From NCBI GenBank assembly GCA_965237955.1, contig OZ250169.1:7104001-7168000 (forward strand): 64,000 nucleotides of DNA, in the 5' to 3' direction. The position numbers were made by a program, and so were the translations under genes. The notes beneath the pieces are model-generated. The model saw only the letters and a program-made list of their open reading frames with translations. It had not been told where the DNA came from and made no database searches. The DNA is from Candidatus Marinacidobacterales bacterium. GTDB lineage: Bacteria; Acidobacteriota; Vicinamibacteria; Marinacidobacterales; SMYC01. Shown in pieces: positions 991-19,560 of the stretch; position 1 is the first letter of the stretch, and each line of letters opens with the position of its first letter.

Positions 991-1769
991 AAACGGCACG
1001 GCGCACTCGCAACGAAAACAACCGCACCGACCCACAAATTGAGGGGGACGCGTCGTTATCGGAACGTCGAAGTAATCTCCTGACAGATTCCTGTCGGAAG
1101 TATGCCAACGATGTGCCGTTGCGGAGCGACTCTGTCCGGACGCAGTTGAAGCGTGGGTGACGGCTCACGCACACGGTCCGCTGAACGCCGGTACTGGTCC
1201 ATCTTCTCTTGGCCGTAGTCCAGCTCCGCCATGTAGGCGTTGTGTGCAGGACATAAGAGTCGTATATTTTTGGCGTCGCGGCCGCCGCCGAGGCCATAGG
1301 CTTCGTCGTGATGGAACTGCAGTCCCTCGCGCTCCGGACAACGTCTGCCGTCCGCGCTGACAAACGTGCATTGGTCACAGTCGCGCTCGCACACGAAGCG
1401 CTTGACCGGTGCGGAGATACCACGCACGCCCGGCGACGTGTCGGCTTGTTCGAGGCTTTTTCTCGGCTTTTTCGTCTTGCCGAAGCGTTTCGCTTCGACC
1501 CGTTCCAGTTTCTCGCTCACCGCTGCTTCGACAATCGATGCGAGGTCGTTGCCGGGCATGAGCGCCGCGAGTCGTTTGAGCTTGTCGCGGAGCTCGGCGC
1601 TCGCGGTGAACTGCACTTTGTAGCGTTCCGGCGCCAACGCCTCGACCACCGCCGGCTTTTCAGGTGGGGTGGGATCGGCAGTGGGCGGAGAGCTCTGAGC
1701 CGCTCCGGACGTGAGAAAAAATCGCGTTTCCCAAGGGAGATGGGGATGGTTGGTCCACACTTCTGTCAA

Positions 1770-2528
1770 CTAGGGGGTTATGCGGCTTTTCGCGGCTTTC
1801 AGCTTGTCATACTCCTTCAACGCTGATTCTAGACGATCCTGTCTCTCTCGCCTGGCGCGTTGCTGCGCTGCCTGCATCTGCAGGCTCGATTCCTCCTCCG
1901 TCTGGGCGTTGAGAGTCTCTACCGCCTCACGCGCCTGCTCCAGGCACTCTTCGACCGTCGGCTTGCGGCGAAATCCACTCGACGAAGCGTTCGCGCGCAC
2001 CTTCGTCCCATCCAGCATGACTCGCTCGAGCGTGATCAATCCGTCCGAACTCAGAACTCCCAGAGCTTGCACAAACAACTCGTCCAGGATCTCCCTATGA
2101 ATCATCCGAAAGTCCGACAGCGTGTGCGCACTGATGCTCTGCATTCCGCTGAGCCATTGATACGCCGGATGATGTTCGCACAGCCGCTCAACCGCGCGGG
2201 CCGAACTCACGGCTTGGCTGTAGCTGTAGACCCACAGGCTCACCAGTAGCTGAGGATCAAACGCAGGCCGGCCTGCGCCACCCGCGACCGAGCGGACTTG
2301 ATCCGTGTACCCGCTGAGATCCAGCCGACCCACGAACTCCCAGATCGCACGCGCTGGGTGATCCTCTGGGATCAAACGCTCCACGTCGACCGTCCGCAGC
2401 AGCAGCTGCGCCCTATCGACCACCTTCAACCGAGCTTGTGTCACGCGCGCTCCCTCATCGCCGTCATCACCATCGCTGCGTTTTCGCGGACTCGGAAAGC
2501 CTGGAAGTGACGTTTGCTTATCACCCAC
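1770..2528 (-). pseudogene. IS1182-family transposase, C-terminally truncated
   Basis: DUF772-like N-terminus (LIPEDHPARAI, GRPAFDPQLL, SSARAVERLC) and first DDE aspartate (LDGTKVRANAS). Ends prematurely at the deletion junction. Confidence 0.9.
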
Positions 2529-2724
2529 GTTTACCCCGCTTCCTCCCACGCTTTGCCTTAGGCGTCCGACGCACAATCAGTGTGTTTCGATCCTCCACCA
2601 CCCACTCCAGCTCCTCGCCCGGCTCCATCTCTAGCGCCTGGGCTAAAGGTGACGGGCAAATCACATAGAACTGACGGGTGTCGTTGGCTCGCTTGATCAC
2701 CTGCAGCTTTGTCACGTATCCCAT
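2521..2724 (-). CDS. AbrB/MazE/SpoVT-like small DNA-binding protein carried by the IS
   Basis: MGYVTKLQVIKRANDTRQFYVICPSPLAQALEMEPGEELEWVVED fits a swapped-hairpin pattern. Lies inside the IRs; its stop overlaps the transposase GTG. Confidence 0.7.
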   Translation of the reverse strand: MGYVTKLQVIKRANDTRQFYVICPSPLAQALEMEPGEELEWVVEDRNTLIVRRTPKAKRGRKRGKRG

Positions 2725-3119
2725 GCTGGTCACTCTATAACATAGCTGCACCGCTAGTCAAGCTTAATTTTTTCTCACGTCCTCCGTCTGGACGGAGCTC
2801 GTTTTTCGGTTGCTGCGCTCGGTTGGCTCGCCGCTTGGGGAGCTTGCGGACGACGCCGGGAACATCCGGCTTCGGCGCAATCTCGGCCACCAGTTGGCTA
2901 AGCGCTTCTTTGGTCTTGTGAGTTGCTCGAGCCAAGAGCTCGTCGCAGTTGGCGTCCGTCAGATGAGGTGCCAGCACGGCAATGCCGCTCAAGTGAAACC
3001 GTCCATCCTCGAGCATCGTCAACAGCTCGGGATGTCGGCGTGACGCACGTGCAGCGGCGATCCGTAGATAGGCTTCTGTCTCTCCTAGCGTTTCCGCGCG
3101 GGCCACCGCGGTGTCATTT

Positions 3120-9573: not shown

Positions 9574-12114
9574 GTGATCGGCCAAACCCTCGCCCACTAC
9601 AAGATCCTGGAGAAGATTGGCTCAGGAGGCATGGGCGAGGTCTATCTGGCCGAGGACACCAAGCTCGACCGGAAGGTCGCACTGAAAGTTCTTCCGCCCG
9701 AGATGGCCGAGAGCGAAGAGCGCCGGGCCCGGTTCAAGCGTGAAGCCAAAGCCATCGCTGCACTCAATCATCCCAACATCGTCACCGTCCACTCGGTCGA
9801 AGAAGCTGACGGTGTCCACTTCATCACGATGGAGCTGGTCCAGGGGAAGACGCTTACGGAGCTGATCCCGAAGAAGGGCCTGCCGCTGAACCAGTACTTC
9901 GAATTAGCGATTCCCCTGGCCGATGCGGTGAGTGTTGCCCACCAGAAGGGCATCATCCACCTGGATCTGAAACCCGACAACTTGATGCAGGACGAGGAGC
10001 GGCGGCTCAAGATTCTCGATTTCGGCCTCGCGAAATGGAGGCAAGAGATCCGGGAGGCAGGTCTGAGCGAGCTACCCACGCAGGCGGCTACCGGAGAAGG
10101 ACGCATTGTGGGGACGGTGGCCTACATATCTCCCGAGCAGGCGGAAGGCAAGACGGTTGATCATCGCTCCGATATCTTCTCGATTGGAATCATCCTTTAT
10201 GAGATGGCGACGGGACAACGCCCTTTCACAGGAGAAACGACCGCTTCGGTTCTTTCGTCCATCATCAAAGAGACGCCTCTTTCGGTCACCGAAGTCAATC
10301 CCGCTCTACCAAAGTCCCTGTGGAGAATCACCAGACGGTGTTTGGCCAAAGATACGGAACGTCGGTATCAGTCTGCCAAAGAGATCCGAAATGAACTGGA
10401 GGAATTGAAGGGGGAGCTGGCCTCGGGAGAGCTCGTGGAGGGAGCGGTCGTTACGAAGCGCTCTCCGGTCGTGAAATGACCTACTTCCTTCGAGAGCTAC
10501 CGAGCGACCGTCTTCGCTTCACCAACCCGATTCAGATCACCTCGGCAGCGGGCGTGGAAGACTTTCCCACGTGGTCTCCCGATGGCGAGCGCCTGGCATT
10601 TCAGTCGGAGGAGAGCGGCAATCCTGACATCTGGGTGACCCAGCTCGGAGGCGGGGGAGCGGTGAACCGAACGGTGGCTCGCGTCGAGGAAGACCAAAGT
10701 CCGAGGTGGTCTCCCGACGGGAGCCAGATTGCGTTCCTCTCGGGGACGGACGTCTTCGTCATGCCAGCGGTGGGTGGCCGGCCTCGCAAGGTGTACGCTC
10801 CGGAAAGTGCGCGTTTCATAGGTTCAATTGACTGGTCGGCGGACGGCGCCGAGCTCGCGGTCGCTTTCAGTGCACCGGAAGGGCACTTCATCGACATCTT
10901 CTCCCTCCCGTCCCAGGAGACGCGGCGAATAGCCTCTCCGAGAAGATGCTGGGACCAGAGCTGGTCTCCTGATGGGCGCTACTTCGCTTGCGTCGCCGCG
11001 GGGAATGATCGTGCGCAAAGGACAAGCCTCTACCTTTTGCCTTCCACCGGAGGTGAGCCCATCGCCGTCACCGACAGGAGCTCGGGCGAGTGGAGCCCGA
11101 GCTGGTCCTCGGATGGACGCCGGCTCTTTTTCGTCTCGAACCGCGGCGGGAGTATGGATCTCTGGCAGCAACGCATCGGGGAGGAAGGGCCGGTGGGTGC
11201 TCCGGAGCCCTTGACGGTTGGTGTCGGCATGCGAAGGGCGGCCTTTTCTCCCGACGGGACGAAGCTCGCTTACTCCAGGGGCCGGATGGTGTCGAACGTG
11301 TGGCGCGCGCCCATTCTCCGCGAACGTCCAGCGACCCGGGCCGATGCCGAGCAGATCACCATAGGCCAGGCATACACCGGCCTCGGCGACATCTCTCCTG
11401 ATGGCCGGAGACTCCTGGTGGGCCGGAATAGGGGTATCTGGGTGCTCCCCGCCGAGGGGGGGCGAGATGGCCCTATTAACGACGGATGCCCGGGAGGGAA
11501 GATGGTCGCCGGACGGACGGGAGATTGTGTTCGGGTCACGCCGCGGGGGAAACCCGGATCTCTGGGTGATGCCCGCGGAGGGGGGTCCTGCCCGGCAGCT
11601 TACTTCAGACCCAGAAGGGGATCACGATCCGACGTGGTCTCCTGACGGAACGGAGATCGCCTTTCGCTCGCTCCGGAGCGGCAACTCCGACATTTGGGTG
11701 GTCTCGGCGGATGGGGGTGAACCGCGCCAGGTGACGGATCATCCCGGAAGCGATCAAAGCCCCGCCTGGTCGCCCGACGGCAAGTGGTTGGTGTTCCAGT
11801 CCCTCGGTCGCGGGGCCGGTCTCTGGCGCATTCCCGCTAGTGGAGGGGAAGCCGAGCCTGTCGCCGAGGGCAGGGCATACCGACCTAGCTGGTCGCCCGA
11901 CGGCAAGGAGATCTACTTCGTGCGACCGACCGACATCAGCACCAACATCTGGGCGGTGTCGTTAGAGGATGGGCGCGAGTACCCGGTGACCGATTTCTCG
12001 GGACGGCACGGGAGCCTCTACGAGTTCCCCCTCGCCACGGACGGAGACTACCTGTACTTTACCTGGGGAGAAGACCTCGGCGACATCTGGGTCATGGACG
12101 TCGTGGCAGAATGA
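9574..12114 (+). pseudogene. Ser/Thr protein kinase with TolB-like (PD40) beta-propeller, broken into three ORFs
   Basis: GSGGMGEV, VALK, HLDLKPDN (HRD changed to HLD), DFG. The transmembrane linker appears lost at ~10476. WSPDG repeats follow, with a frameshift in a G-run at ~11460. Confidence 0.85.
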
Positions 12115-13444
12115 TCTTTACTGTCGTACCCGCTCCCTCCACGCTTTCGAGCTGAATCTCGCCTCCCAAGCTGTGGATGATGCTCCGGCAGTTGAACAGC
12201 CCCCAGTTGCCTGTAGAGACCCTGCCCTCAGCCACCGTAAACGAAGGCTCGAATATCTGGTCCAGTCGCTCCGCCGGAATCCCGTGTCCGTCGTCCTCGA
12301 CCTCGACGACGACACCGTTTTTGTTGGCGCAGGAGCGAACGTGAATCGTGCCGTTGTCGCCGATCGCGTGCCTCGCGTTCAGCAGAAGATTCGTGAACAC
12401 GGCACTCAACTGTTGTGGACGGCACCGGAAAGTTGGAAGCGGCTCGAGCTCCAGGGTGATGTCCGCGGTCTTCTCGAGCTCGGCTCTTAGAGTCTCAACG
12501 GTATCCTCGAGTAGAACACGCACGTCGACCGCCGCTTCCTCCGCCCGATCAAGATGAGTGAACCGCTGCATCCGTCCGACAACCTCGCTCAGGCGTTCGC
12601 AGGAGCGTCTGGCCGTCGTCTCGATGTCGCCCAGCACTTTCATCAGCCGGTCTGAGGGTTGCTCTCCAGCTTGCGACTTCTCGAGGGCGACAGCCAGGGT
12701 GCTCAAGTTACTTTTGATAACCCCGATGGGCGAATTGAGCTCGTGACTCAAAGCTGCCGCGAGCCGTCCTTGCGCCGCCGCACTCTTGGCGAGAGTCACC
12801 TGCGCCTGAGCTCGTAGCACTTGCTGGCGGGCCTGAAAGGCGGAGGCTCGCTGGTGGTAGACCACAGCCGTCAATCCCACAAAGATGAGCGTCACCACAA
12901 CGAGGGAGGCCAAATTCAACGGCGAAACGTCCGGAACGAATAACTTCTCTGGATAAATCGCCATCGCGCCAACGTAGGTTACGAACATCGATGACCCGAG
13001 AGCTAGAGTGTGAAGCGGCCGTAAAGGCATCGCGCCGATACTCACCAGCATCACCAGATTGATGTTCGGCGGAACGGCGTGCTCGACTCCAGGATAAGAG
13101 GCTGTCACCGCCGTTACGATGAAGATCAACGCCACGCCATAGCCGATGACACATCCGGCTAGCCGCGCGTGTTTACGTAGCCTGGGCAGGACCCAGAACG
13201 GGACCCCCACCAGGCCCGTCCCCATCAGAGCGAGATCGGGCCAAACCCAGATGTGAGACAAATATCCCAGCTTGCTCAATATCGTAGTGACCGTCAGCAT
13301 GAACCCAACCCCTACCACGGTGATGAAGACGATTGCTCTCAGGCCGACGACGGCGACCCTCGTCAACTCTTCGCGCAAGGCGGGATCCCGCTGCTCTTCT
13401 TCAGGCAGCAGATATCGTTTCCAATCGCTCCACCGGATACCCAT
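12092..13444 (-). CDS. Membrane sensor histidine kinase
   Basis: Several TM helices, LSHELNSPI H-box, NLLLNA N-box, DDGHGI G1, IFEPSFT, GWGL-like G2 (GNWGLF). Confidence 0.9.
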   Translation of the reverse strand: MGIRWSDWKRYLLPEEEQRDPALREELTRVAVVGLRAIVFITVVGVGFMLTVTTILSKLGYLSHIWVWPDLALMGTGLVGVPFWVLPRLRKHARLAGCVIGYGVALIFIVTAVTASYPGVEHAVPPNINLVMLVSIGAMPLRPLHTLALGSSMFVTYVGAMAIYPEKLFVPDVSPLNLASLVVVTLIFVGLTAVVYHQRASAFQARQQVLRAQAQVTLAKSAAAQGRLAAALSHELNSPIGVIKSNLSTLAVALEKSQAGEQPSDRLMKVLGDIETTARRSCERLSEVVGRMQRFTHLDRAEEAAVDVRVLLEDTVETLRAELEKTADITLELEPLPTFRCRPQQLSAVFTNLLLNARHAIGDNGTIHVRSCANKNGVVVEVEDDGHGIPAERLDQIFEPSFTVAEGRVSTGNWGLFNCRSIIHSLGGEIQLESVEGAGTTVKIILPRRP

Positions 13445-13899
13445 CGTATGCCTCCCCGGGAGTTGACCCCACGGCCAGGACATTCTAGTCCATGTATCAG
13501 AAATTGTTTTGCAATACGCATCGCCACATGGTCGAGCACAGCGCGGCGGAGCCGCAACGAAACTCATGACTTTGGAGTGGGAGCAGTCCGTCTGGCCATC
13601 GCCCGGTCAGTGAACCAGGAAGCTCGGCCGAGTCAAGGTTAGCCTCGTTTCGCTCGGCGGCTTCGCCGACCCTCGACATATTGACTCGACCTGCGCAACG
13701 GGTAGCGGTTCTGTCTCACTCAACTCCGGACGTGAGAAAAAATCGCGTTTCCCAAGGGAGATGGGGATGGTTGGTCCACACTTCTGTCAACTAGGGGGTC
13801 GGGTCCGCGCGGTACGGATTCACCCGATATCGTATCGGCGTTTCGTTGGTGCTCTATGACTAGCGCTTTAACAAGTCGGGCTGCGTGTGCTCAACGCGC

Positions 13900-15466
13900 T
13901 CACGTCGGCACGAGTGTCGATACCATCTTCGGCCTCCAGCGGAGGCGAATCCACTGCAAGATATCGTAGGTGAGGGCGACCCACAGAGATTCAGTGCGCA
14001 CTTTGGCGACTCCGCGCACGCTAAACTGCCGCAGGCCGAACTTGGTTTTGATCCAGAGATTCGGAAACTCGGCCACCTGCGAGCGTGTCTTATAGATGGC
14101 CTTGGCTTCGTCGGTCTGCATCTTCTTCCGGAACGCGGCTATGTCGGGCAAGAGTTCGCGCCGCTCGATCGAGCGGCCGTGCTGCGTACGAGGACAACAC
14201 TGCTCTTTGGCCGGACACGTCTGGCAGTCTTGCTTAGACGCCTTATATCGATAGCGCATCGTGCCATGGCTTTCCTGCTTGGCGTCGTAGCGTAAGTGCT
14301 TGCCCTGCGGGCACACATACGTGTTGGTCTGCGTATCGAAGACAAACTTCGACGCCTCGTATTCCGCTTTCACGCCGTGGTGCTTATACGACTTGCGCCG
14401 ATTGGCCTCTGCTGCCTTGTTCTCGTGGTCGGGGCCGACGAGATCGATGCCGCGCTTCGCCATCTCCGCGATGTTGTTGCTACTTAATGTAGCCTCCATC
14501 TACGACCATCTGCTCGGGCGCACGCTGCATGCTCTGCTCAATCCGTTCTATGGCCGGCGTCAGCTGCTGATAATCGCTACCGGCCTGCGTGGCATCGATG
14601 TCGACAATCAGGCCGTGTGCGGCATCCGTTGAGACTTGGACGTTGTAGTTAGGTGCGGAGCCGCCCTCGGCTTGCTTCATCACCCGCGCGTCGGGATCGG
14701 TCGTGCTCACGCAGTCTATGCGGCTTTTCGCGGCTTTCAGCTTGTCATACTCCTTCAACGCTGATTCTAGACGATCCTGTCTCTCTCGCCTGGCGCGTTG
14801 CTGCGCTGCCTGCATCTGCCGGCTCGATTCCTCCTCCGTCTGGGCGTTGAGAGTCTCTACCGCCTCACGCGCCTGCTCCAGGCACTCTTCGACCGTCGGC
14901 TTGCGGCGAAATCCACTCGACGAAGCGTTCGCGCGCACCTTCGTCCCATCCAGCATGACTCGCTCGAGCGTGATCAATCCGTCCGAACTCAGAACTCCCA
15001 GAGCTTGCACAAACAACTCGTCCAGGATCTCCCTATGAATCATCCGAAAGTCCGACAGCGTGTGCGCACTGATGCTCTGCATTCCGCTGAGCCATTGATA
15101 CGCCGGATGATGTTCGCACAGCCGCTCAACCGCGCGGGCCGAACTCACGGCTTGGCTGTAGCTGTAGACCCACAGGCTCACCAGTAGCTGAGGATCAAAC
15201 GCAGGCCGGCCTGCGCCACCCGCGACCGAGCGGACTTGATCCGTGTACCCGCTGAGATCCAGCCGACCCACGAACTCCCAGATCGCACGCGCTGGGTGAT
15301 CCTCTGGGATCAAACGCTCCACGTCGACCGTCCGCAGCAGCAGCTGCGCCCTATCGACCACCTTCAACCGAGCTTGTGTCACGCGCGCTCCCTCATCGCC
15401 GTCATCACCATCGCTGCGTTTTCGCGGACTCGGAAAGCCTGGAAGTGACGTTTGCTTATCACCCAC
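13900..15466 (-). CDS. IS1182-family DDE transposase, +1 frameshift near 14490
   Basis: LDGTKV, STTDPDARVMK, YNVQ, VVDGGY, then YVCPQGK, CQTCPAKEQC, YKTRSQVAEFPNLWIK, GLRQFSVRG in ORF 13900..14499. Confidence 0.9.
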
Positions 15467-15772
15467 GTTTACCCCGCTTCCTCCCACGCTTTGCCTTAGG
15501 CGTCCGACGCACAATCAGTGTGTTTCGATCCTCCACCACCCACTCCAGCTCCTCGCCCGGCTCCATCTCTAGCGCCTGGGCTAAAGGTGACGGGCAAATC
15601 ACATAGAACTGACGGGTGTCGTTGGTGTTCCGCTTCAGCGGAAATGAGACTTTCTGCAAGTGACGGGTTCTCTCCCCTGCCTGGGTGAACTGCCATGGTA
15701 TCGCCACCGGGAGGATAGGGCACTGCTGGGAAGCAACCCGAGCGCCCGGTGGCCGGAATACGGTTGGCATTA

Positions 15773-16819
15773 TTACGCACTGTGTTCATGCTCCCGGGCT
15801 CCGGTATGAGCCAAACCGGATCCGCTCAAAGCGGAAAATCCCGGGGGTTCGGGGGCAGAGCCCCCGTTCGCTATGTGACAACTGGATTCTCCGAGCCGTT
15901 TGAGGTTTTCTTCGCGGCGATGCTTGCGTGCGTTCTCGAGTTTGTCGAGACGTACCTGCTTGCGCTCTTCGTGACGGAGGAGAAACCGGTCTTCGGGCGT
16001 GAGGTATTCGATTCCTGCGTGGAGCCTCTTTGCGTTGTAAATCTCTATCCATTCTCCGATGATGTCTTTCGCGTGAAGCTGATTGCGAAGCTCCTTGTCG
16101 GAGAGGCCCTCCTCGCGCAACGTGCGATGAAATCGCTCGATTGCACCGTTGGACTGCGGATGATGAATGCGAATACGAATCTGCTTCAATGAGAAGTGCT
16201 TGATGAGTTTGCGGAAGTCCTTGCTGGTAAATTGGCTGCCGTTGTCGTTGACAATCTGGGGCCGTTCTCCAGGGTAGCGCTCCAGTGCTGCATGGACCAC
16301 ATCCGTCACTTCGGCGGCGGTCATGCGCGACAGCAGTTCCCAGTACACGATGTAGCGCGAGAAGCCGTCCAGCACTCCGATGAAGAAATACCACCGTCCC
16401 GCGATCCACAGGTACATCAAGTCCGTATGCCAGCGTTCGTGGGGGCGTTTCGGAAGTTCGGGCTTGCGGCCTACGGACGGTGTGGCATTCCACCTTGCGA
16501 GCAAATCGTTCCGGTCCAGAATGCGGTACACGCTGCTCGGGCTCAGGCAAACGACATCCTCGTCCACCATCATCCAGCACAGCCGCCGGTAGCCGTCCCG
16601 TGGGTGTGCTAAAGCATAGACCGTCACCGCCTCCTCCTCTTCGGCAAGCACCTGGTCCAAGTCTGGTGCCTTGGGCTTGATGTCCTCCAGCGCTCCCTCC
16701 TTGCGCCTCTTTTGCCAGCGGTAGTACAGCGAGCGAGAGAGCCCGAGCTTCGAGACAACCCATTCCAGCTTCACCCGGCTTCTCTCCATCGTCTGCTCGA
16801 TACAATCCAAAATCCTCAA
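15773..16819 (-). CDS. IS3 transposase OrfB (rve integrase core)
   Basis: WHTDLMY, LDGFSRYIV, NDNGSQF, PQSNGAIERFHRTLREE, YNAKRLHAGIEY. Confidence 0.93.
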   Translation of the reverse strand: MRILDCIEQTMERSRVKLEWVVSKLGLSRSLYYRWQKRRKEGALEDIKPKAPDLDQVLAEEEEAVTVYALAHPRDGYRRLCWMMVDEDVVCLSPSSVYRILDRNDLLARWNATPSVGRKPELPKRPHERWHTDLMYLWIAGRWYFFIGVLDGFSRYIVYWELLSRMTAAEVTDVVHAALERYPGERPQIVNDNGSQFTSKDFRKLIKHFSLKQIRIRIHHPQSNGAIERFHRTLREEGLSDKELRNQLHAKDIIGEWIEIYNAKRLHAGIEYLTPEDRFLLRHEERKQVRLDKLENARKHRREENLKRLGESSCHIANGGSAPEPPGFSALSGSGLAHTGAREHEHSA

Positions 16820-16851
16820 CTTCTCGTGCGGCTCGAAACGACACCGGTCGA

Positions 16852-17145
16852 CTAGCTTCCAAGCGTTTTTTTTAGGTCCAGATTCTCCATGGTGATCTCT
16901 ACCACCACCGATTTCATCCTCTCAAGCTCTTGACGCAGCTTCTCCTCGCGGCGAGACGCCTTCTCCTTCTTGCCATTCTGAAATGATTCCAGTGTCGCCT
17001 CCTCCGATTGTTTCAGCCACTGATAGTACTGCCCTGTATTCAATGCGTGGCGCCGACACACCTCGGACACCGTCGCACCACTCTCCTGGCACTCCTTGAG
17101 TATCTGCAGCTTCTCCTTCGCTGACCAACGTTTCCTGCCGTCCAT
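16852..17145 (-). CDS. IS3 transposase OrfA (HTH)
   Basis: RKRWSAKEKLQIL..VSEVCRRH..YYQW; A8 slippery run at its 3' end (16866-16873). Confidence 0.92.
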   Translation of the reverse strand: MDGRKRWSAKEKLQILKECQESGATVSEVCRRHALNTGQYYQWLKQSEEATLESFQNGKKEKASRREEKLRQELERMKSVVVEITMENLDLKKTLGS

Positions 17146-17336
17146 CTCTGCCTTCTCCCTTCGTTGAGTATAAGACAGAGGCGAAAACCGTCACTTACTA
17201 CGACCCCCAAAAGTCTCATTTTGGCTGAACCAATACAGTTGGCTCGCTTGATCACCTGCAGCTTTGTCACGTATCCCATGCTGGTCACTCTATAACATAG
17301 CTGTACAGCTAGTTAAGCTTAATTTTTTATCACGTC

Positions 17337-17355
17337 CTCTGCCCGGGCAGAGTTG
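17337..17355. repeat. HNH-associated palindrome, upstream copy (its left tip lies at 13721-13726, split off by IS1182)
   Basis: CTCTGCCCGGGCAGAGTTG is identical to 18637-18655. Confidence 0.9.
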
Positions 17356-17574
17356 AGCGTGAGCTCGCGAAGAAAAAGATCACTTTGTGCTTGACAGCTT
17401 TTTGAAGGCGTGTTGGAAAAAAGTGTGCGCGCGATCTCTAGTGCGTCTGTGCGCGGCGTAAAGCAACGATAGTCGCCTTGTTTTCGCTGTCGAGACTTCG
17501 CAAGACCGTTGACGTCTTTGCGTTTGACAGGCGCGAACTGAGTGTGACGAAAAACTCCATGCTATAAGAAACAC

Positions 17575-18660
17575 ATGAACAACATAGACGAATTGAGATC
17601 GCTTTCCGACGACGAGTTGCTTCATCGTGTGTCGGATTTGTTAGCGCAGTCGCGACGTGTCGAGTGGGTTCTTGTCGCACACATCGCGGAAGTCGATGCA
17701 CGTCGACTCTATGCTCGCGAAGCTTCGCCGTCGATGATTCACCACTGCATGGATGTGTTGCATTTGTCGGAAGGGGAAGCTTATCGGCGCATCGCCGCAG
17801 CTCGGCTGTCACGCAAGTATCCGGTGATCCTTACGATGCTCAAGGACGGACGCCTTCACTTGTGCGGTATCGGAGTGCTGTCCAAGCACCTGAGTGACGC
17901 CAACTACGAAGACGTCTTGGCCAAAGCCACGCACAAGAGCAAACGTGAGCTCGAAAAGCTCGTGGCCGAGTTGGCTCCGAAACCGGATGTTGCGCCGACG
18001 ATTCGTAAGCGGCCGCAACGCAAAGCGAAGGCGGCGCCTCCCGAATCGTCGAACGAGCTCTGCCCGGACAGAGGTGAGCAAAATGCTCCCCCAGTCGAGC
18101 CCGCCCCTCCACAAGCCCCTGAAAAACCGGCAACGGTCGAGCCTCTGGCGAAAGCGCGCTACAAAGTCGAGTTCACGGCGAGCGAGGAGCTCCGCGACAA
18201 GCTCAAACGGCTCGAGGCGCTCATGCCGGGAAGCGACCTCGCGTCCATCATAGACGCGGCCGTGTCCGAAAAACTCGAGCGCGTCGAGGCCAAACGCTTC
18301 GGTAAGACCAACAAGCCGAGAAAAAGCCTTGAAGCAGCTGATACCTCGTCGGGTGTGCGCGGCATCTCGGCCCCAGTCCGGCGTTTCGTCTGCGAACGTG
18401 ACGGGGACCAATGCACGTTCGAAAGCCCTGACGGCAAACGATGCCCCGAGCGTGACAGGCTGGAGTTCCATCACGACGAACCCTGCGGACTAGGCGGAGA
18501 CCGAAGCGCGAAGAACGTCCGGCTCCTCTGTAAATTACACAACGCCTATATGGCTGAGCTCGACTACGGCAAAGAAAAGATGGACCAGTACCGGCGCTCC
18601 GCCGACCGCGTCTCGGAACCTCAACCCACACTCGAACTCTGCCCGGGCAGAGTTGCGTAA
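17575..18660 (+). CDS. DUF222-like HNH endonuclease (copy 2, intact, 361 aa)
   Basis: LSDDELL..LVAHIAEVDARRLY..LSEGEAYRRIAAAR N-domain; C-terminal VCERDGDQCTF..C..LEFHH..GG..NVRLLCKLHN. TGCTATAAG extended -10 ends 6 nt before the ATG. Confidence 0.88.
   Translation: MNNIDELRSLSDDELLHRVSDLLAQSRRVEWVLVAHIAEVDARRLYAREASPSMIHHCMDVLHLSEGEAYRRIAAARLSRKYPVILTMLKDGRLHLCGIGVLSKHLSDANYEDVLAKATHKSKRELEKLVAELAPKPDVAPTIRKRPQRKAKAAPPESSNELCPDRGEQNAPPVEPAPPQAPEKPATVEPLAKARYKVEFTASEELRDKLKRLEALMPGSDLASIIDAAVSEKLERVEAKRFGKTNKPRKSLEAADTSSGVRGISAPVRRFVCERDGDQCTFESPDGKRCPERDRLEFHHDEPCGLGGDRSAKNVRLLCKLHNAYMAELDYGKEKMDQYRRSADRVSEPQPTLELCPGRVA
18635..18654. repeat. Perfect 20-bp palindrome at the 3' end of the HNH ORF
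   Basis: AACTCTGCCCGGGCAGAGTT is its own reverse complement and encodes ELCPGRV. Confidence 0.92.
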
Positions 18661-18740
18661 ACTCCACCGCCACCCAGGCACCGCGCGGTCTCCAACCCCA
18701 GAGCCCCGACCACAGGGATCGCCACGGCGTGGAGTTTACG
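18656..18740. repeat. 85-bp segment bounded by a perfect 12-bp inverted repeat
   Basis: CGTAAACTCCAC (18656-18667) / GTGGAGTTTACG (18729-18740). Confidence 0.7.
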
Positions 18741-18958
18741 ACTTGGTTGCTGCTAGCTGTGTTGCACACGGAGGAAAAACGAGAGCGCCGGGCGAGCATC
18801 GCATGCTTCACTGCTTCACTGCGGCACTCGGGAGTCAAACGAGCTCGGTGAGCTCTTCTCCCTCTGTTTTCAGCGAACCTTGACCGCGCACGCTCGTTTA
18901 GACTTTCGTCAGTAATCAAGGATCCAGGGGACTGGATTCCTTGTTAATAAGGTTGCGA

Positions 18959-19560
18959 ATGACCCTCAACTCCGGAACCCGCCTCGGCCCGTATGAAATC
19001 CTGTCGCCGATTGGCAAGCGTACAGGGCGAGGTCTACAAGGCCCGCGATCTCAAGCTGGGACGCCAGGAAGCCCGCGCCGCGTCAGCCTTGAATCATCCC
19101 AACATCGTCACGATCTACGAGATCGGCGAGCACGACGGCATGCCGTACATCGCGGTGGAGTACGTGGACGGCAAGACGTTGAGGGAGGTGCTCGCGGGTG
19201 GTCCGCTTCCTAACGACAAGCTCATCCGCTACGCGGCTCAGATGGCCGAGGGTCTTGCGAAAGCGCATCAGGCGGGGATAGTTCACCGTGACTTGAAGCC
19301 CGCGAACACCATTATTAGTGACGACGAGGTATATCAAGATCCTAGACTTTGGTCTCGCCAAGTTGATGCCGCAGAGCTCCGGCGTCGATCCCGAGATGGC
19401 GACGATGACGAAAGCGACGCGGGCGGGCACTCTTCTGGGCACGGTGCAGTACATGTCGCCGAGCAGGCCTCCGGCCGTCGCGTCGATTATCGTTCGGACC
19501 AGTTCTCGTTCGCGTCGATCCTCTACGAGATGATGACGGGAAGGCTCGCCTTTCAAAAGG
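18959..19560 (+). pseudogene. Degraded Ser/Thr protein kinase
   Basis: MTLNSGTRLGPYEILSPIG, EARAASALNHPNIVTIY, HRDLKPAN, KILDFGLAK, GTVQYMSP are spread over several frames with internal deletions. Confidence 0.9.

Follow-up and report, generated by a model that had tools for sequence, protein, structure and literature searches.

Why does an intact gene for an HNH nuclease lie between two identical copies of a 19-bp sequence, and could such sequences be the recognition sites of a selfish unit to which the gene belongs? The question is raised by a 64,000-nt stretch of the genome of a Candidatus Marinacidobacterales bacterium (Acidobacteriota; assembly GCA_965237955.1, contig OZ250169.1, positions 7,104,001 to 7,168,000 of the forward strand), here called the window, in which CTCTGCCCGGGCAGAGTTG is found twice, at 17337-17355 and at 18637-18655. 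The two copies are spaced 1300 bp apart around an intact open reading frame (ORF) of 361 amino acids on the + strand (17575..18660), as a preliminary description of this DNA had reported, and these coordinates are borne out. The reading that we favour, at somewhat less than even confidence, is that this unit is one copy of a multi-copy, presence/absence-variable HNH gene unit of Acidobacteriota, in which three symmetric sites are likely bound, and predicted to be cut, by the protein that the unit itself encodes. The unit is likely a selfish element of undescribed kind.

Three palindromic sites, none of which has a strand, were located in the unit. The upstream palindrome (17337..17355) is a remnant, the first bases of which now lie at 13721-13723, to the left of an insertion sequence (IS) that we call IS-A. 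In contigs of other samples (X4 and X6), 13723 is joined straight to 17337 and IS-A is missing; IS-A is thus a later insertion, and the native upstream site is CAACTCTGCCCGGGCAGAGTTG, a perfect 22-bp palindrome with 21 nt in common with the 3' site. In other copies of the unit its counterpart lies about 240-250 nt before the ATG. The linker palindrome (18058..18073), CTCTGCCCGGACAGAG, has one mismatch and lies in the part of the gene that encodes a low-complexity linker, where a third variant had already been noticed in the preliminary description. The 3' palindrome (18635..18654), AACTCTGCCCGGGCAGAGTT, is perfect and spans the final codons of the ORF. Searched exactly, the 16-mer core was found at two places in the 8.13-Mb genome, both at the HNH locus, and the single genome match with one mismatch is the linker copy at 18058-18073. 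Within the window, a search allowing up to three mismatches gave three matches, against a mean of 0.57 in shuffled sequence (3 of 100 shuffles reached 3). Between the upstream palindrome and the gene lies a conserved 5' region (17356..17574, + strand), which consists of an A-rich tract, a -35-like TTGACA box (17391-17396) and then a conserved leader that reaches the ATG, and which can be aligned among nine genomic copies from about 17385 onward. The conserved TTGACA box was not called by a consensus promoter scan.

The same three positions recur in homologous loci. In 80 such loci, taken with 1.2-kb flanks, palindromes (at least 8 paired positions, at most one mismatch, loop of at most 2) peak at +450..+500 nt (38 + 5), at +1050 (13) and at -250 (11), with 1-6 in each of the other 50-bp bins. 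Loci with a palindrome number 43 of 80 for the linker zone, 18 of 80 for the ORF end and 21 of 80 for the upstream zone, a few of these 21 being unrelated A/T-rich palindromes. The consensus of the sites is AACT-nnn-TCCGGA-nnn-AGTT, with a centre of TCCGGA or CCCGGG. Sites were also sampled blindly to symmetry, with the outer triplets alone as anchor (ACT-N12-AGT). Among 93 anchors, 79 fell in the three zones, which make up about 16% of each locus, and 14 fell elsewhere; at least 5 of the 6 inner pairs were complementary in 58 of the 79 in-zone anchors. Several Watson-Crick pair types occur at a given position (for pair 5, GC 13, CG 9 and TA 11), and the symmetry continues through the centre, the pair 8-11 being CG in 41 of 44 distinct sites and the pair 9-10 in 31 of 44. 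Such centre symmetry is typical of duplex sites that are read by dimers and superfluous in a hairpin loop. Moreover, sites resemble each other more within a locus than between loci (2.65 versus 3.61 differences), with only 11 of 5000 permutations as low. The three-site feature is real, conserved and beyond chance. The preliminary description had named homologues lacking the palindromes or their covariation as the outcome that would speak against it; what the homologues hold is palindromes at the same three positions, with inner bases that vary in step.

The sites also keep company with the gene. A search with the pattern AACTNNNTCCGGANNNAGTT gave 74 sites in 18 of 41 related genomes (1-15 per genome), and all 18 hold the gene family; full symmetry is shown by 39 of the 74 sites, where chance would give 1.6%. 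No such site was found in 14 genomes of family f3, and a reversed control pattern was found in none of the 41 genomes. Site positions were checked in the 80 sampled loci and in the window genome. In the latter, ACT-N12-AGT palindromes with a CCGG or CYRG centre occur only within HNH genes, some 250 nt before such a gene, before one but separated from it by a later IS, or beside IS-A, and none is free-standing. The comparison with repetitive extragenic palindromes (REP) and REP-associated tyrosine transposases (RAYT), which the preliminary description had drawn, therefore fails: there is no Y1 HUH protein, there are no free-standing palindromes, and the sites are confined to genomes that hold the gene family. 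A REP-like dispersal of free palindromes was ruled out, the exact motif being found at this locus only.

The protein is laid out in a helical N-terminal domain (residues 1-135), a disordered linker (about 140-200) and a helical plus HNH part (about 200-345). An alignment of 24 diverse homologues shows no variation at C280, C290, H300, C319, H322 and N323, and the marks of an HNH (His-Me finger) nuclease, a beta-beta-alpha-metal core with the predicted catalytic His and Asn and a Zn-binding Cys/His set, are present as judged from the sequence and the model. The match to the Pfam family DUF222 (PF02720) is below threshold (16.3 bits against a cut-off of 24.4) and covers residues 20-125 only; another genomic copy, c4072, reached 22.4 bits in a search of the genome. 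Matches to the HNH families of PHROGs are weak (E 5e-4 to 2e-3). No DDE, HUH/Y1, tyrosine or serine recombinase is encoded in the unit according to searches of Pfam, NCBIfam and PHROGs, which returned weak DUF222 and HNH matches only.

In an AlphaFold2 model (predicted local distance difference test, pLDDT, 84), residues 25-135 matched the DNA-binding protein KorB (8qa8) with a Z of 7.5 over 97 aligned residues (root-mean-square deviation 3.4 A), followed by ParB-parS (6s6h, 7.4), KorB-operator (1r71, 7.0), Spo0J (1vz0, 6.4), SopB (4.9) and VirB (4.2). The HNH domain matched GVE2 HNH (5h0o) and EcoKMcrA (6ghc) with a Z of 6.8 each, and McrA in a Foldseek search (E 0.012). For residues 1-140 the prediction is a symmetric homodimer that pairs via the long helix 12-43, with a score of 0.66 against 0.09 for the best of three controls; among proteins of solved structure, 20 of 30 one-chain pairs and 1 of 23 single chains attained that score, counts which hold only roughly here since a custom alignment was used. 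The runs agreed in at least 92% of contacts, with a partner pLDDT of at least 81. Thus, the N-terminal domain is predicted from the models to resemble the DNA-binding domain of KorB and ParB and to form a homodimer, and the C-terminal domain is predicted to resemble McrA-type HNH nucleases.

The gene belongs to a large and repeated family. The window genome holds 30 matches to the protein, five of them without interruption and almost complete in length (68-76% identity), one broken by an internal TGA and the others fragmentary; at the DNA level, homology among the genomic copies runs from about 17385 to about 18671. The family was found in 26 of the 41 related genomes, with up to 49 matches per genome, and is absent from all 14 f3 genomes (2.7-4.2 Mb). 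Representative clusters matching at E<=1e-3 number 16,700. The records of the relatives are metagenome-assembled genomes of Acidobacteriota, 'Candidatus Marinacidobacterales' or Vicinamibacteria, with single matches in Polyangiaceae, Thermodesulfobacteriota and Verrucomicrobiales. The ratio of nonsynonymous to synonymous substitutions (dN/dS) is 0.08-0.26 in the N- and C-terminal domains for 9 of 10 paralogue pairs (dS 0.6-1.4), and 0.38-0.46 for the closest pair, c6558/c5700 (dS about 0.15). The low values in both folded domains indicate that the protein has been kept functional under purifying selection. In the linker the ratio is 0.24-1.1, and it is there and in the C-terminal tail that the peptides ELCPDR and ELCPGR are located, in agreement with the earlier suggestion that they are by-products of a DNA motif. 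An exchange of N- and C-terminal modules at the linker palindrome was also considered and rejected: in trees of 67 intact proteins (18 of 85 were dropped as incomplete or frame-broken matches), none of 16 splits of the N tree and none of 23 splits of the C tree with a support of at least 0.9 were in conflict.

Where does the repeated unit begin and end? Homology among units of the genomes G025, G033 and G023 (three loci, searched against two genomes) begins within a few bases of the upstream palindrome (query 942-955), and to the left of it the sequence differs from locus to locus. On the other side, homology stops at the 3' palindrome in loci L063 and L122, and 30-115 nt beyond it, past a terminator-like hairpin, in others. 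The unit had been described as palindrome-bounded, which holds for the 5' edge but not for the 3' edge of those copies that run past the 3' palindrome. At one locus the unit is variably present: the L066 unit (about 937-2388, about 1.45 kb) is absent at the matching position in G023 and G033. It starts 5 nt past the 3' end of a transfer RNA (tRNA) gene (positions 861-936 of L066), and tRNA genes are classic landing places for mobile DNA. The filled/empty comparison shows no target duplication and no palindrome in the empty sites, the palindromes being intact inside the filled unit; the expectation that an empty site would retain one palindrome is thus not supported at this one locus. With a repeated segment and presence/absence variation, the idea of a mobile-type unit devoid of DDE, HUH and tyrosine recombinases stands, and it can be extended to serine recombinases. 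At seven other loci no clean empty site was found: L063, L074 and L085 are filled orthologously in the sister genome, the flanks of L114 are not adjacent there, those of L132 and L161 lie far apart, and the right flank of L160 is without a match, as was the right flank of L063 in its own search. Three HNH copies were found only in G009, and two of these, L132 and L161, lie at synteny breakpoints relative to G013, with flanks far apart or on different contigs.

Some contigs skip exactly from palindrome to palindrome, namely from 18071 to 18660 (X1) and from 1242 to 1981 of locus L007, which joins the upstream to the linker palindrome of copy c4072 (X4, side 53). These contigs are single, with a depth of 5-6.5, and could reflect site-directed events or slippage between 20-bp direct repeats. 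Long terminal inverted repeats are not a general feature: a match between the upstream and downstream flanks of the same unit occurred in 1 of 61 loci and was the palindrome itself, and c4072 showed a weak 30-bp flank match (87%). As a separate observation, upstream flanks often match the reverse complement of the downstream flanks of other units (21 inverted versus 3 direct, loci L054-L133), and several copies in the window genome are flanked by 'wings' that form weak inverted repeats (100-130 bp), 13536-13671 of the window being the stretch compared. Inverted flanks could arise by insertion in either orientation into a repeated target or by inversion of the unit.

We take the sites to be probably those of the unit's own protein because a predicted dimeric, palindrome-reading domain is tethered to a nuclease, because the sites are symmetric through the centre with conserved outer and central bases, because they occur only with the gene, and because the edge of the repeat lies at a site. 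From this we infer how the unit might be cut and spread. A dimer of the protein would bind each of the three sites; at the upstream site, about 35 bp before the -35-like TTGACA, it would repress the promoter of the unit, as KorB and I-TevI do with theirs. By nicking or cutting the outer sites, the HNH domain would free the unit or lay it open, and the unit might then be copied or captured at a break elsewhere; neither a canonical transposase nor a palindrome or duplication at the target would be involved.

Several observations weigh against this reading. The variable triplets of the sites do not track residues of the N-terminal domain: among the top 30 columns by mutual information (36 proteins typed), 5 lie in the N domain, 12 in the site-coded linker and 13 in the C part. 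The symmetry is therefore not explained by a dimer that co-evolves with the site and simply reads it out; it suggests that a hairpin or cruciform structure of the site is recognised as well, or that arm-to-arm correction keeps the site symmetric. As single-stranded DNA, the linker palindrome of the window copy folds weakly (-3.8 kcal/mol, z -0.6). In a large subfamily spread over several genomes, the linker site is kept asymmetric (CCG|CTT). The repeat often extends past the 3' palindrome; L066 is the only clean filled/empty pair found, and at its left junction 10 extra nt stand between the tRNA flank and the palindrome. No circle or excision joint of the whole unit is among the joints listed, with the proviso that assembled contigs cannot show its absence. 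The Z values of the fold matches are all below 8 and thus middling, and a common helical arrangement can reach such values by chance. Finally, the paralogues of the window genome are old (dS 0.15-1.4), with no near-identical pair and no trace of recent movement.

The subfamily with the asymmetric linker site (L065, L066, L122 and related loci, with sites in G004, G016, G025 and G033) deserves a description of its own. It is a single lineage with hybrid sites, CCG|CCG upstream, CCG|CTT in the linker and CTT|CTG at the 3' position, so that the half-sites toward each protein module form their own inverted pair.

The alternative that survives best, which we nevertheless hold to be unlikely, is that the palindromes are operators only. 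The gene family would then encode a self-repressing nuclease, host-useful or selfish, the palindromes serving autoregulation or roadblocking alone, and its copies would have arisen by ordinary duplication, horizontal transfer and illegitimate recombination, with no part played by activity at the sites. The KorB/ParB-like N domain with its predicted homodimer fits such a role, KorB being a repressor, as does the position of the upstream site just before the conserved -35-like box. The age of the paralogues, the lack of recent bursts and the ragged 3' edges are also what this alternative would lead one to expect, and no defence-system model (PADLOC) matched. Operators would, however, explain a single site near a promoter and leave those conserved at the linker and the stop codon unexplained. 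Nor would they account for the sharp start of the repeat exactly at the palindrome, seen in many copies, for copy numbers that are very high and include many fragments, or for the symmetry of bases that are not contacted.

A slightly less probable alternative, which sharpens the reading of the preliminary description, makes the unit an autonomous transposon that moves via single-stranded or hairpin DNA, its HNH protein cutting palindrome hairpins as the TnpA of IS200/IS605 or a RAYT does and giving a circle of about 1.3 kb between the upstream and 3' sites. IS200/IS605 elements have subterminal imperfect hairpins at both ends and insert next to a short target motif; the HNH unit starts at a palindrome on its 5' side and carries another 0-115 nt before its 3' edge, its palindromes are perfect and loop-less, and a target motif cannot be deduced from one insertion. 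With REP/RAYT and IS200/IS605 systems the HNH unit has in common short palindromes tied to one gene, the lack of terminal inverted repeats and, in the sole insertion seen, the lack of a target duplication. The inner triplets that vary in step without tracking protein residues would be expected of a site read as a hairpin; the 21 identical nt of the upstream and 3' sites of the window copy, the exact stop of homology at both palindromes in L063 and L122, and the contigs that jump exactly from one palindrome to another (X1, X4) also agree with it. Against this, the palindromes have no loop, and their symmetry and strongest conservation pass through the centre, unlike in those systems, which moreover possess an HUH/Y1 protein and numerous free palindromes. 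The hairpins are moderate (-8.1 kcal/mol, z -3.3, for the 3' palindrome as single-stranded DNA) and weak at the linker. The unit encodes no HUH or other strand-transfer enzyme, and HNH enzymes hydrolyse DNA and do not join it. No circle junction was among the joints listed, most copies run 30-115 nt past the 3' palindrome, and the skipping contigs, single and of low depth, may equally well be due to slippage.

It is improbable that the sites act in RNA, as hairpins of the mRNA that stop, process or stabilise the transcript and yield, for example, a product with the N domain only or a stable 3' end. Two of the three sites do lie within the transcript, at the domain border and at the stop codon, and their arms vary in step; the third, however, is upstream of the conserved -35-like box. 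Sense-strand G-U wobbles are not preferred (mismatches TG/GT 12 versus CA/AC 16), the sites have no loop and a conserved centre that is itself symmetric, no T-run follows any of them, a terminator scan gave none at the sites, and Rfam had no match within 13300-19300. That the palindromes belong to IS-A or are left by it, unconnected with the HNH gene, is virtually ruled out in spite of the 9 of 13 IS-A right ends that adjoin a palindrome, three of them without an HNH match within 6 kb, given that 4 of 13 IS-A copies have 5-bp duplications and no palindrome, that IS-free contigs show an intact palindrome at the window site, that intact HNH genes in the window genome and 17 others carry the sites with no IS nearby, and that IS-A targets only CTCYG-armed palindromes.

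What known system does the selfish unit that we favour resemble? The closest known kind is the DUF222/HNH repeated gene of REP13E12 type, and new here is the defined three-site DNA signature. DUF222/HNH proteins (PF02720), REP13E12 included, likewise have a helical domain at the N-terminus and an HNH domain at the C-terminus, at a similar length, and their genes are likewise dispersed multi-copy repeats with no known transposase or mode of spreading. Some homologues of the window protein carry a precomputed PF02720 label; the window protein itself is below the gathering score, and the true DUF222 loci of its genome are without AACT...AGTT palindromes. These loci hold two nearly identical DUF222-HNH genes (93-96 bits to PF02720; L146, 7765373-7766236, and L147, 4850058-4850921); the palindromes are absent at both, and one has a frameshifted C-terminus. 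To our knowledge, no mechanism by which DUF222/HNH-type genes multiply is known. REP13E12 of Mycobacterium tuberculosis was named a 'novel repeated sequence', as cited in PMC10589994. The passages returned by full-text searches of the literature did not describe conserved in-gene palindromes for DUF222/HNH genes, REP13E12 or multicopy selfish HNH genes.

Homing endonucleases offer a second comparison. I-HmuI, an HNH enzyme, and I-TevI are free-standing homing endonucleases with a tethered DNA-binding domain, and I-TevI represses its own promoter. The HNH unit is alike in combining a nuclease with a predicted sequence-specific DNA-binding domain on a flexible linker, in being a likely selfish gene and in having a possible autorepressor site. 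Homing endonucleases, however, cut the empty allele and sit in a fixed host gene, whereas the sites of the HNH unit are inside the element and the unit is found at many unrelated loci. A homing endonuclease gene was rejected as an identification, the empty sites in G023 and G033 being without a palindrome and the sites being intact in the filled unit (one locus). The structures closest to residues 25-135 (Z 7.5-4.2) are those of KorB, ParB, Spo0J and SopB; these proteins act as dimers on palindromic operators or parS sites, and a homodimer is likewise predicted for the window protein. The latter differs from them in its low identity (9-18%), in the lack of the ParB N-terminal CTPase domain and in its fusion to an HNH domain.

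DUF222/HNH-type genes are among the commonest unexplained repeated genes of bacteria, the present branch alone amounting to the 16,700 representative clusters mentioned above. A three-site signature with arms that vary in step, found at the edge of the repeat and together with a domain that plausibly reads palindromes, turns the vague notion of a 'selfish HNH gene' into one that can be tested directly, by asking whether the protein binds, cuts and represses and whether the unit moves. A bolder proposal, which we regard as doubtful, is that the unit stands for a new class of mobile element, in which a sole protein made of a KorB-like domain and an HNH nuclease recognises its own loop-less sites at the edge, middle and end and drives excision and re-insertion unaided by DDE, HUH, tyrosine or serine enzymes; the spread of DUF222/HNH genes of REP13E12 type across bacteria would follow the same principle. 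If true, such a one-protein KorB-like/HNH class would explain the long-puzzling spread of REP13E12-type repeats.

The sites of the HNH unit are themselves the target of another element. IS-A, which lies outside the HNH unit, landed in the upstream palindrome and is present in the window as a left part of 1.9 kb (13723..15625, - strand) and a right end of 99 bp (17238..17336, - strand) that ends ...CTCACGTC flush with the palindrome. Between the two is nested an element of the IS3 family (15626..17237, - strand), whose ORFs match HTH_Tnp_1 and rve and which has five further copies with 99.8-100% identity. A joint from 15620 to 17238 was present in all four contig sets compared. The IS-A transposase matches DUF772 (6e-11) and, in an intact copy, DDE_Tnp_1_6 (4e-20), and the element has inverted ends, GACGTGAGAAAAAAT; both domains and the terminal inverted repeats are thus present. 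We take the pair of DUF772 and DDE_Tnp_1_6 to mark the IS1182 family and therefore call IS-A IS1182-like.

IS-A has 13 copies in the genome, at about 99% identity. In nine of them the right end lies against a palindrome of the HNH type, three of these nine having no HNH match within 6 kb; the other four end ...CACGTC and are flanked by 5-bp duplications, CTCYG or CACCG. The orientation is constant, with the right end toward the centre of the palindrome. Matching repeats of 5 to 6 bp flank three copies (CTTCTG, CACCG, CTCTG), and most other left ends read ACTCCG versus a right flank of CTCYG, with a one-base difference in three copies including that of the window; we read these flanks as 5-bp target duplications with the consensus CTCYG. 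Only palindromes with an arm CTCYG are targeted, and GTG-armed units are untouched. In the HNH copy at 5.30 Mb of the genome (5301840-5307134, region of L016/L017), all three palindromes contain an IS-A. IS1272, of the IS1182 family, was shown to insert at three different inverted-repeat structures (PMC5678879). Insertion at palindromes is common to both elements, the targets of IS1272 being stem-loops of inverted repeats. IS1272 replaces the target repeat with no duplication, whereas IS-A leaves the palindrome on one side and a 5-bp duplication, CTCYG. In its landing preference, IS-A offers a natural case of a mobile element that exploits the likely recognition sites of a second one as a parasite.

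Other elements have entered HNH units as well. Five units (c5700, c6558, c1986, c6229 and c5575, corresponding to loci L009, L006, L013, L010 and L012) that represent at least two subfamilies carry a 1.37-kb IS481-like element about 195 nt before the ATG, with the A-rich tract on one side of it and the TTGACA box on the other. In two of the five an IS21-like element is nested in it, and in c1986 the inserted stretch that carries the IS481-like element also has an ISL3-like ORF.

The window holds a paralogous HNH unit on the - strand (1125..3088), which is cut at its linker palindrome by an internally deleted IS-A. It is made up of the C-terminal half (1125-1697), IS-A (1703-2781), the palindrome (2782-2797) and the N-terminal part (2774-3088). 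Its 3' site, ACTGCGTCCGGACAGAGT (1129-1146), is an imperfect palindrome, and its linker site is CTCCGTCCAGACGGAG (2782-2797, minus strand); palindromes of different sequence at both in-gene positions had been reported for this paralogue, and both were found again. Downstream of the intact gene lies a flank (18661..18936, + strand) that is common to one degraded copy elsewhere in the genome and whose membership in the unit is uncertain; 18648-18936 is 93% identical to 4100193-4099903 of the genome, which adjoins another IS-A. A separate repeat of about 105 bp (12000-12104 of the window), not related to the HNH unit, is found at several places in the genome with 81-93% identity.

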